Positions 18,001 through 21,000 of a stretch of 52,483 nucleotides of DNA are shown here, piece after piece. Made by a program: the position numbers. Source of the DNA: a virus (Duplodnaviria > Heunggongvirae > Uroviricota > Caudoviricetes); IMG/VR virus record IMGVR_UViG_2877251553_000005; one strand, 5' to 3'. The stretch's first letter is position 1. Each line of letters begins with the position of its first letter.

Positions 18001-21000
18001 GTAAGGATTGCCGTGGGCGTGGTGTCGCCATTCATCGTGAAGAGTCGGTAAAACGTGGTATGCCTGTTATCAGAGACTGCCAGCGTTGTGGTGGTCGTGG
18101 CTGTGAAAGACTACCATCAACGGAGGCATTTAATGCCATATGCAAAGTGACGAGTGCTATCACGCTTGATACGTGGAAAAAATCAGTGAAACGCTTTTAC
18201 GATACGTTGGTGGTTCGGTTTGACATTGAAGAGGCATGGGCGGAGCGGCAGTTAAAGAGGGTAACGCGATAGTGTTGTTGATTTTTCCCGAATCTGTGGT
18301 AAATTTGCTCTAACGATGGGCGTTTTATGCCTGACGTTAGAAGATTTTTTACACCCCGCCGCCTGGCGGGTTTTTTATGACTGAAATCGCGTCAGTACAG
18401 TAAACGCGCTGGTGGCGGTGAATACCTGTCTTTCAGCTTGCTGGCTTTTTCGACAAGAGTTATTGGTGTGTCACGTTAACCGGAAAAGGGAAAAAGACAT
18501 GCTGAAACAGCAGGATATGACAGAAACCGCCAGAGTGGTGTTTAATGAATTAAGCGTTAACGACCCGGCGACAGTCGGGGAGATTGCGCAGAATACTTAC
18601 CTTTCACGCGAACGCTGCCAGTTAATACTGACCCAGCTGGTTATGGCGGGTCTGGCAGACTATCAGTTCGGTTGTTACAGACGCCTTCCGCAGTGAAGGC
18701 TTTTTTATTTGTGGTAAATGGGCGGCTGGTGGGTGTTAGGGGCACCCACCAGCCATCTGCTCATGCGTTGGGTTCACAAGCAAACCTCAGGCCCACTGCT
18801 TTGCGCAAAAGCAGAATGAGCCTATCAGAGACAGGCTTAATGATCCATGCTTAATACTGTAAAAATATCCAGTTGTGAGTTAATCAACGCCGACTGCCTG
18901 GAATTTATCTGGTCGTTACCCGAAAATTCTGTTGACCTGATAGTCACGGACCCGCCGTACTTTAAAGTGAAGCCTGAGGGCTGGGATAACCAGTGGAAGG
19001 GCGACGATGATTACCTGAAGTGGCTGGACCAGTGTCTGGCGCAGTTCTGGCGGGTGCTGAAACCTGCCGGAAGTCTTTACCTGTTCTGTGGTCATCGCCT
19101 GGCATCTGATATCGAAATCATGATGCGTGAACGCTTCAGTGTGCTGAACCATATTATCTGGGCGAAGCCGTCCGGACGCTGGAACGGATGCAACAAGGAA
19201 AGCCTGCGGGCGTATTTCCCCGCCACAGAGCGCATTCTGTTCGCGGAACATTATCAGGGGCCGTATCGTCCGAAAGATGCCGGGTATGCGGCGAAGGGCA
19301 GTGCACTGAAACAGCATGTGATGGCCCCGCTGATTTCTTACTTTCGTGATGCGCGCGCGGCCCTGGGGATAACGGCAAAACAGATTGCAGATGCCACAGG
19401 AAAGAAAAACATGGTGTCGCACTGGTTCAGTGCCAGTCAGTGGCAGCTACCGAACGAAAGCGATTATCTGAAATTACAGTCGCTGTTTGCCCGGGTGGCA
19501 GAAGAGAAACATCAGCGCGGTGAACTGGAAAAGCCCCACCACCAGCTGGTGGATACGTATACGTCACTGAACCGGCAGTATGTGGAGCTGCAGAGTGAAT
19601 ATAAGCATCTGCGGCGGTATTTTGGTGTGACGGCGCAGGTGCCGTACACGGATGTGTGGACACATAAACCGGTGCAGTTCTATCCCGGGAAACATCCGTG
19701 CGAAAAACCGGCAGAAATGCTGCAGCAGATAATCAGCGCAAGCAGTCGTCCGGGTGACCTGGTTGCAGATTTTTTTATGGACTCAGGTTCAACGGTAAAA
19801 GCGGCACTGGCGCTCGGGCGTCGTGCGATTGGCGTTGAGCTGGAGACCGGACGTTTTGAGCAGACGGTTCGGGAAGTACAGGATTTAGTCAGCCAGAACG
19901 GATGATATTGCAGAATTAATTACGCGTCGTTATTATGCGGCTCCCGGCCCTTTAGCTCAGTGGTGAGAGCGAGCGACTCATAATCGCCAGGTCGCTGGTT
20001 CAAATCCAGCAAGGGCCACCATCACATACCGCCATTAGCTCATCGGGATAGAGCGCCAGCCTTCGAAGCTGGTTGCGCGGGGTTCGAGTTCTCGATGGCG
20101 GTCCATTTATCGGTATTCTGCGTTGTTAGCTCAGCCGGACAGAGCAATTGCCTTCTAAGCAGCTGTGGTTGCACTCCTGTTGTTTCTGGTGGTGATGGTG
20201 GACTTCAGCAGCCGGATAATGTCGGTGCTGTCTGATGATGTTTTGGTGGCGGGTGTGGTGGTTGTTGCTTTCCCGTTGCTGAAAAAGAAAGCATCAGGCG
20301 ATTAGCAGGGTATCAGTTACCCGTTGAAATTTTTAAATACCTCACAATTCCACAGCTTGATGATTGTCTGGCTGCCGGAGAATTTGTTAAAAATTACATC
20401 GCATGGTGAATCCCCCTCAGCGGCGGGGCATCTGGCAAAGTGTATGATCCAGAGAACATGCAAATTCAGTAGACAGGCTGAATTTACCGGGAGGCACCTG
20501 GCACCATGCGACAGACAGAAATTAGGCTATACTTCAGCCCCTCTCCGGAGGGGCTTTTCTGTGCAGGATGTGTCACAGTTTCCTGAATTCTGAGTACTGT
20601 CCTGTTACTCAGGGTGCTATATTTTCTGACGTGATGAAAGTCTGCCGGAAGGCGGAACGTATCGGAAATGACCCAGTAGAGAAAACGTTGACTCAGATAC
20701 CGATGCTGAGTTACCGGGAAACCGGCATCACATGACCGCTATCCTTCCAGGCTCGCTCCGGCGGGCCTTTTTACTGCAGAAAACAGTTTTCCCGTAAAAT
20801 GCTACGTTGCTCATAATTCAGGCTGGCGATTATTGTCTGGCCAGCGGGAAGTTTGTTAAAAAATTTCGCATGGTGAATCCCCCTGTGCGGAGGGGCAATC
20901 AGCGAGTAGGTATATGGGATAATCGCGGATTCAGGTGCTGGTACTGAATTCACCGGGAGGCACCCGGCACCATGCAATGGCACATAGCGCCACTCTCCAG

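Follow-up and report, generated by a model that had tools for sequence, protein, structure and literature searches.

The segment at 20120–20161 of the window (by which we mean the whole stretch of DNA analysed, 52,483 nucleotides of a tailed virus, IMG/VR record IMGVR_UViG_2877251553_000005) is very probably a non-functional remainder of argO, the prophage gene for tRNA-Arg(UCU), left by an illegitimate deletion of 654 bp. It is a real pseudo-tRNA, the ordinary deletion scar of a familiar kind, and it lies in a mosaic lambdoid prophage that is free of stx (no stx gene is present in the 52 kb window). In the literature that we searched on ileZ, argN and argO and on the 933W tRNAs, we found no description of this argO scar.

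The tRNA cluster is housed in the variable region that begins with the Q gene and extends to the lysis genes. The features that concern us here are the following, in the order in which they occur:

17451–18272, plus strand: late antiterminator Q gene (open reading frame; collinear relatives, 98.9% identical over 17400–23566, annotate it as "antitermination protein").
18847–19905, plus strand: N6/N4 DNA methyltransferase gene (Pfam PF01555, E=3.6e-42).
19946–20021, plus strand: intact tRNA with anticodon CAU, ileZ type (ARAGORN; Rfam tRNA model, 72.5 bits).
20029–20105, plus strand: intact tRNA-Arg (UCG), argN type (ARAGORN; Rfam, 50.3 bits; allele comparison).
20120–20161, plus strand: argO remnant, very probably the 5' 42 nt of a tRNA-Arg(UCU) gene that is 77 nt long when intact (100% identity to nucleotides 1–42 of argO in E. 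coli KE26).
20161–20162, no strand: deletion junction (base-by-base comparison with the left and right sides in KE26).
20162–20305, plus strand: DUF3927 small membrane-protein open reading frame, truncated at its 5' end (Pfam PF13064, 65.6 bits).
20371–21028, plus strand: three tandem STnc100-like prophage sRNA units (Rfam RF02076).

According to the annotation of a relative that is 98.9% identical over 17400–23566, the genes around the site are Q, a small hypothetical gene, the methyltransferase, DUF3927, IraM, an esterase of the SASA family and the holin/lysis genes. The methyltransferase gene stands directly 5' of the tRNA cluster, as it also does before ileZ-argN-argO in KE26 and in Stx2 phages; this neighbouring gene, and not the tRNAs, is the subject of a published study (PMC10810198). 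On the downstream flank of the scar, the STnc100-like units occupy 20371–20564 (140.5 bits), 20600–20775 (a weak match of 30 bits) and 20840–21028 (132.8 bits), each of the three being closed by a terminator hairpin. The array is highly variable between relatives, and sRNAs of the STnc100/PasD type are a known feature of such prophages (bioRxiv 10.64898/2026.05.13.724894).

The first two tRNAs had been read from the sequence alone as complete and ending in CCA, and this is indeed the case: ARAGORN, run on the whole window, calls two tRNAs only (19946–20021, anticodon cat, and 20029–20105, anticodon tcg), both of them terminated by an encoded CCA. The first, of ileZ type, is named tRNA-Ile in RefSeq and in Stx phage records. 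The argN allele of the window carries a T at 20090 where the other alleles have a C, which places a G-U pair in the T stem, beside the loop.

The sequence-only reading held that a third tRNA, starting at 20120, is truncated, and on this point ARAGORN and Rfam agree with it. Neither the default nor the relaxed runs of ARAGORN returned a complete third tRNA; with thresholds lowered to 80–85%, introns allowed and the mitochondrial mode in use there was still no call starting at 20120, and we consider a non-canonical or intron-containing tRNA at this place to be ruled out by that silence. When the downstream sequence is included, the Rfam tRNA model aligns locally with the D arm and the anticodon arm only (20129–20163, model positions 10–42, 14.2 bits, E=2.5); when the input is cut at 20161, the truncation mode of Infernal recognises a 3'-truncated tRNA (model positions 1–40 of 71, 26 bits, E=3.5e-4), the remnant scoring in either case below the RF00005 gathering score of 29 bits. 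Apart from this partial tRNA match, no Rfam family was found over 20106–20330 at E values up to 10. The remnant at 20120–20161 does not have the makings of a functional tRNA, being without a T arm and without an acceptor 3' strand to pair with positions 1–7.

That the fragment derives from argO follows from its sequence and from its position. A blastn comparison of intact argO with the window aligns argO nucleotides 1–42 with 20120–20161 at 100% (42 of 42 nt) and gives no other significant match anywhere in the window, while the gene order and the spacer after ileZ and argN are the same as for an intact argO. The names are those of GenBank, where Stx2 phage records annotate the three genes found here as ileZ, argN and argO. 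The intact argO of KE26 (1805–1881 in our KE26 locus, L005) reads GCGTTGTTAGCTCAGCCGGACAGAGCAATTGCCTTCTAAGCA followed by ATCGGTCACTGGTTCGAATCCAGTACAACGCGCCA; from 20120 the window reads GCGTTGTTAGCTCAGCCGGACAGAGCAATTGCCTTCTAAGCA, matching nucleotides 1–42 of the KE26 gene, and is unrelated to argO beyond. Phage matches that are without the junction end at query position 262, which is position 20161 of the window.

The third tRNA is unfinished because the last 35 nt of argO have been lost, and with them the remainder of the anticodon stem, the variable loop and T arm, the 3' side of the acceptor stem and the CCA. What is left comprises the acceptor 5' strand, the D arm, the 5' strand of the anticodon stem, the loop CUUCUAA and three of the five nucleotides of the 3' strand of that stem, the break falling three bases into this strand (GCA/AT). 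Three details of the sequence-only reading have to be adjusted in this light. It called the anticodon arm convincing, which holds for the 5' strand and the loop, but of the 3' strand GCAAT no more than GCA stems from argO; G20162 and C20163 come from the far side of the junction, and the resulting chimeric stem contains a G-U pair and a C-A mismatch. It gave the fragment an extent of 20120–20200, of which the start is correct, but the remnant ends at 20161. Finally, it saw nothing downstream able to pair with the acceptor 5' strand, GCGUUGUUAG; there is a G-U-rich complement at 20232–20241, but it is not placed in tRNA geometry. We also rejected an alternative structure for the remnant, since its fold stability is at the level of shuffled sequence: predicted folds of 42, 77 and 145 nt are no better than shuffled ones (z = +0.18 to +0.5), against z = -2.0 for intact argO.

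The suggestion that the break marks a recombination or deletion junction proved to be well founded, as there is a precise join between 20161 and 20162 and 654 bp are absent by comparison with the intact arrangement. The sequence across the join is ...TTCTAAGCA / GCTGTGGTTGC..., and its position is unambiguous, because base 20161 fits the left parent alone and base 20162 the right parent alone; microhomology, sought against 20 intact-type sequences, was not found. At the right breakpoint all 20 intact-type loci (from IMG/VR, with KE26) read ...GTAAAAATGCGTCTG / GCTGTGGTTGC, the sequence to the right beginning with GCTGTGG. The distance from the start of argO to this breakpoint is 696 nt in those intact-type loci that contain the exact argO seed and 42 nt in the window, and therefore 654 bp are missing from the latter.

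The gene content of the missing interval can be read from KE26, in which the order is methyltransferase, ileZ, argN, intact argO, a terminator-like hairpin, a TerB-family gene and DUF3927 (54 aa). The hairpin after argO (L005 1896–1913) and the whole TerB-family gene (Pfam PF05099) are inside the deleted interval, and the window picks up again with codon 8 of DUF3927, at L005 2501. On the left, KE26 and the window share 96% identity over 1846 nt, up to the breakpoint exactly, and on the right the match restarts exactly at 20162, with about 79% identity over 857 nt; just to the right of the junction there are a few base differences between loci of the KE26 type and the window (GCG versus GCA). 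The sequence-only reading had the break coincide with the start of an stx-free cargo segment. It is true that there is no stx and that the junction adjoins the cargo, but the same cargo (TerB-family gene, DUF3927, STnc100-like sRNAs, esterase) follows an intact argO in relatives, and the deletion cuts into the first cargo genes as well.

The gene on the right of the junction has thus been damaged too. DUF3927 has lost its first seven codons (GTG ACG GTA AAA ATG CGT CTG), its native start and all upstream sequence, and neither a native start nor the upstream region of an intact gene is to be found before it in the window. The match to PF13064 is nevertheless above the gathering score (65.6 bits versus a cut-off of 25) and covers profile positions 11–50, versus 4–50 in the full-length KE26 protein. 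The only possible start in what remains is a GTG at 20165 (open reading frame 20165–20305), and no longer DUF3927 reading frame is possible because an in-frame TAA, derived from the anticodon loop, lies just upstream at 20156–20158. An additional deletion of 1 nt puts the DUF3927 remnant out of frame in 30 of the 34 junction loci; the original frame is kept in the window and in loci L028, L029, L033 and L037. As to existing annotation, PGAP calls the truncated DUF3927 open reading frame just downstream, and RefSeq/PGAP records are without any feature over the argO remnant.

Two known arrangements are useful for comparison. In Stx2-converting phages the cluster ileZ-argN-argO (Stx2a_F723, AP012533) occupies the same site downstream of Q, with the methyltransferase where this gene is present; its ileZ-type gene is identical to that of the window over the aligned region, its argN shows two differences, and its argO agrees with the window over nucleotides 1–42 save at position 37. 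In the window, however, the third gene is without its last 35 nt and is followed by a truncated DUF3927 instead of stx2AB. The second arrangement, stx-free, runs from argO through the TerB-family gene to DUF3927 (E. coli KE26, MCJCHV-1, O157:H7 prophages); it is collinear with the window on both sides and contains both breakpoints, the window differing by the absence of the 654 bp between argO nucleotide 42 and DUF3927 codon 8. A variable tRNA complement in this same region of lambdoid phages has been described for Stx phages, with three tRNA genes between Q and stx in Stx2a/c/d phages and two in Stx2e, Stx2f and Stx2b phages (PMC7366253); the study gives counts of called tRNA genes, and a truncated argO junction is not described there. 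For prophages that carry the junction, the scar accounts for the presence of two tRNAs and not three.

We propose the following history. An ancestral lambdoid prophage would have carried Q, the methyltransferase, ileZ, argN, argO, the terminator hairpin, the TerB-family gene and DUF3927, and a single illegitimate (that is, non-homologous) deletion of 654 bp would have fused argO, after its base 42, directly to DUF3927 at codon 8. Such a deletion would account for the loss of the last 35 nt of argO, the terminator-like hairpin, the complete TerB-family gene and the 5' end of DUF3927.

The allele is not rare. With a query that spans the junction and a required match coverage of 80% or more, 321 of 5426 complete E. 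coli genomes (about 6%) carry exactly this junction, and it also occurs in 30 IMG/VR contigs, in four induced phage genomes (vB_EcoS-640R1 and its relatives) and in the type strain of Escherichia albertii; the intact arrangement, argO followed by the same cargo, is found in 790 of the 5426. The same breakpoint recurs in 34 sampled loci; over the 230 nt before and the 420 nt after it these loci fall into 12 haplotypes, and four argN alleles are linked to the junction, one of them a scrambled pseudo-argN. None of the junction-bearing relatives that we checked has a UCU tRNA near the junction. We favour a single event, because one identical junction sits in several flanking backgrounds; judging from these sequence comparisons, the allele looks like one that arose once and was then transferred into various prophage backgrounds by homologous recombination through conserved flanks.

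It could be argued that the join was made not within one genome but by a non-homologous exchange between two phages, one contributing Q, the methylase, ileZ, argN and argO and the other DUF3927, STnc100, IraM and the esterase, with the crossover inside argO and DUF3927. The lambdoid prophages considered here are strongly mosaic, TerB-DUF3927 follows ileZ-argN-argO, tRNA-Asn/tRNA-Gly or no tRNA at all within 1.5 kb, depending on the contig, and the right flank is about 79% identical to KE26, versus 96% for the left flank. We nevertheless regard such an exchange as unlikely: both end points fall within one collinear interval of 0.7 kb, in an arrangement that exists as such in 790 complete E. coli genomes, so that a simple deletion needs fewer assumptions. 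A one-step deletion is not separable from the two-phage join by the present comparison, since the direct parent of the junction is not among the loci compared (KE26-type loci differ just to the right of it) and the right flank of KE26 has the modest identity given above. The two routes lead to the same product and have the same consequences.

The question of whether the deletion, which in our preferred history occurred within one genome, has been kept for some function deserves to be raised, given how common the allele is (321 of 5426 genomes) and how little it varies. The block 20120–20370 is nearly invariant (4 of 251 columns variable), while its flanks are variable (variable columns make up 38% of argN, 43% of the spacer and 33% of 20371–20581, the 5' part of the first STnc100 unit, to which alone this last figure refers). 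Such near-invariance may mean that the block is of recent origin, or that it is under constraint. One might imagine that the remnant serves as a tRNA-half-like RNA or as a structured leader for the DUF3927 open reading frame and for read-through into STnc100, or that loss of the terminator or of TerB was itself selected, and the removal of a terminator-like hairpin by the deletion would fit the last of these; we give such retention only a very slim chance. In conservation the tRNA remnant, with 1 variable column in 42, does not surpass the adjacent DUF3927 open reading frame, with 2 in 144, and since the latter is decaying (30 of 34 copies are frameshifted), there is no sign of selection on the tRNA fragment itself. 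In addition, no stable or significant structure is predicted, the partial tRNA remains the only Rfam match over 20106–20330, and low diversity is no peculiarity of the scar, as the intact TerB-DUF3927 block varies about as little in the part examined, namely the 45 nt before the breakpoint, which are the same in 20 of 20 intact-type loci. A related proposal is that selection maintains the deletion allele, either because the loss of the argO terminator and of the TerB-family gene alters how far transcription of the tRNA cluster continues into the STnc100-like sRNAs and the esterase gene, or because the late transcript yields the 42-nt 5' half as a stable tRNA-half-like RNA with an activity of its own; it strikes us as quite improbable.

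tRNA genes are common targets of integration, and the integrases that target them normally duplicate the 3' segment and restore the gene. It was because tRNA 3' halves are classical targets that the half tRNA had been connected with integration; it would then be an attL or attR remnant, left when a site-specific integrase placed the downstream cargo into argO. We find this hardly credible, and the data do not support it. The 3' half of argO is absent from the 52 kb window (pattern search with up to 3 mismatches, and blastn-short), as is any direct repeat, and a split tRNA or an att repeat was rejected for the same reason. No integrase lies beside the fragment among the annotated neighbours in the 98.9%-identical relative (these are Q, the methylase, IraM, the esterase and the holin); the prophage integrase of the collinear relative adjoins ompW, some 18 kb from the tRNA cluster. 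The gene has been destroyed here, whereas integrases usually regenerate it; many genomes have the same cargo 3' of an argO that is intact; the right-hand side of the junction falls within a coding sequence; and the break is in the anticodon stem, without any bases common to the two parental sequences. The tRNA fragments left by att sites at the borders of elements do resemble the scar in being partial tRNA genes beside accessory cargo, but they are duplicated 3' portions with an integrase adjacent and an intact gene regenerated, whereas the scar in the window is a 5' portion, without duplication or adjacent integrase, of a gene that was destroyed. As for a false junction created by assembly or sequencing, we dismiss it, since the same junction is present in hundreds of independently finished genomes, in induced phages and in another species.

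We return to the deletion scar and to its probable consequences. RNase P, the enzymes of 3' maturation and arginyl-tRNA synthetase need an acceptor stem and a T arm, and because these are absent from the remnant, its transcript should be neither matured (by RNase P and the 3' enzymes) nor aminoacylated. Most likely it rides as an untranslated leader of the Q-dependent late transcript. Beyond annotation the significance of the scar is small. It points neither to a new integration site nor to a non-canonical tRNA, nor to any stx-related boundary. It does provide a precise and so far unannotated marker of one deletion allele between Q and the lysis genes, and could in this way help to follow recombination among lambdoid prophages. 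AGA and AGG are still used at about 11 per 1000 codons in the open reading frames of the prophage, and a prophage deprived of its own decoder for these codons would be expected to rely on the tRNA-Arg(UCU) of its host.

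The tRNA cluster found upstream of TerB-DUF3927 is an exchangeable cassette: in the IMG/VR contigs L043, L046, L048 and L057, tRNA-Asn(GTT) and tRNA-Gly(TCC) stand ahead of this module where ileZ-argN-argO would otherwise be. Seven other contigs carrying TerB-DUF3927 gave no tRNA call when ARAGORN was run on as much upstream sequence as each offers (at most 1.5 kb, and in L045 just 425 nt). The deletion junction itself is present, exactly as in E. coli, in the type strain of E. albertii, NBRC 107761 (L038, NZ_BBMY01000139.1, 5680-5702), and this identity of sequence indicates that the prophage module bearing the junction crosses species.

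The DUF3927 remnant to the right of the junction has changed further in most copies. In 30 of the 34 junction-bearing loci (those listed with it are L004, L006, L008-L027, L030-L032, L034-L036 and L038), a further 1-nt deletion, GGGTGTGGTGG to GGGTGTGTGG, at the equivalent of window position ~20260, shifts the frame of the remnant and gives it a new end, ...VAGVWLLLSRC*. The window represents the minority haplotype, in which the original C-terminus is retained.

The tRNA genes also differ between alleles. At position 37 of argO, on the 3' side of the anticodon, the window remnant (20157) shares an A with the argO of both KE26 and MS6198, and Stx2a_F723 (L001, 3254) has G. In argN, position 20090 is T in the window and C in the Stx2 phage and KE26 alleles; the T produces a G-U at the loop-adjacent T-stem pair (normally G53-C61). 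A sister argN allele, present in 10 related loci, carries a further change, G3 to A, that disrupts a pair of the acceptor stem. In the window lineage, the second tRNA may be decaying too. Some relatives have, in place of argN, a pseudo-argN of 80-81 nt (L002, 4120-4200; L003, 2410-2500; L007, 18502-18601), with a scrambled centre and both ends conserved; ARAGORN made no call on it in these three loci, and it is found alongside intact as well as truncated argO.

Downstream of the scar, the window contains the following features:

20371-20564, + strand, STnc100-like (RF02076) prophage sRNA, unit 1 (140.5 bits)
20600-20775, + strand, STnc100-like (RF02076) prophage sRNA, unit 2 (30 bits, under the gathering score)
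20840-21028, + strand, STnc100-like (RF02076) prophage sRNA, unit 3 (132.8 bits)
21054-21389, - strand, anti-adapter protein IraM ORF (annotation in near-identical RefSeq relatives)
21634-22278 and 22161-23504, + strand, SASA-family esterase (nanS-p-like), a split gene in two ORFs

Each of the three tandem sRNA units (20371-21028) is closed by a strong terminator hairpin; a 2026 preprint (bioRxiv 10.64898/2026.05.13.724894) links STnc100 with the PasD sRNAs. The IraM ORF had no match in a Pfam search at E up to 0.01, and the corresponding interval of KE26, in which argO-TerB-DUF3927 is intact, carries no annotated IraM gene. The esterase is split because a G run at ~22224 is 1 nt shorter (GGGG for GGGGG) than in the intact gene of E. 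coli 600055, which is 99.7% identical; the split gene is either a pseudogene or the product of a homopolymer sequencing error.
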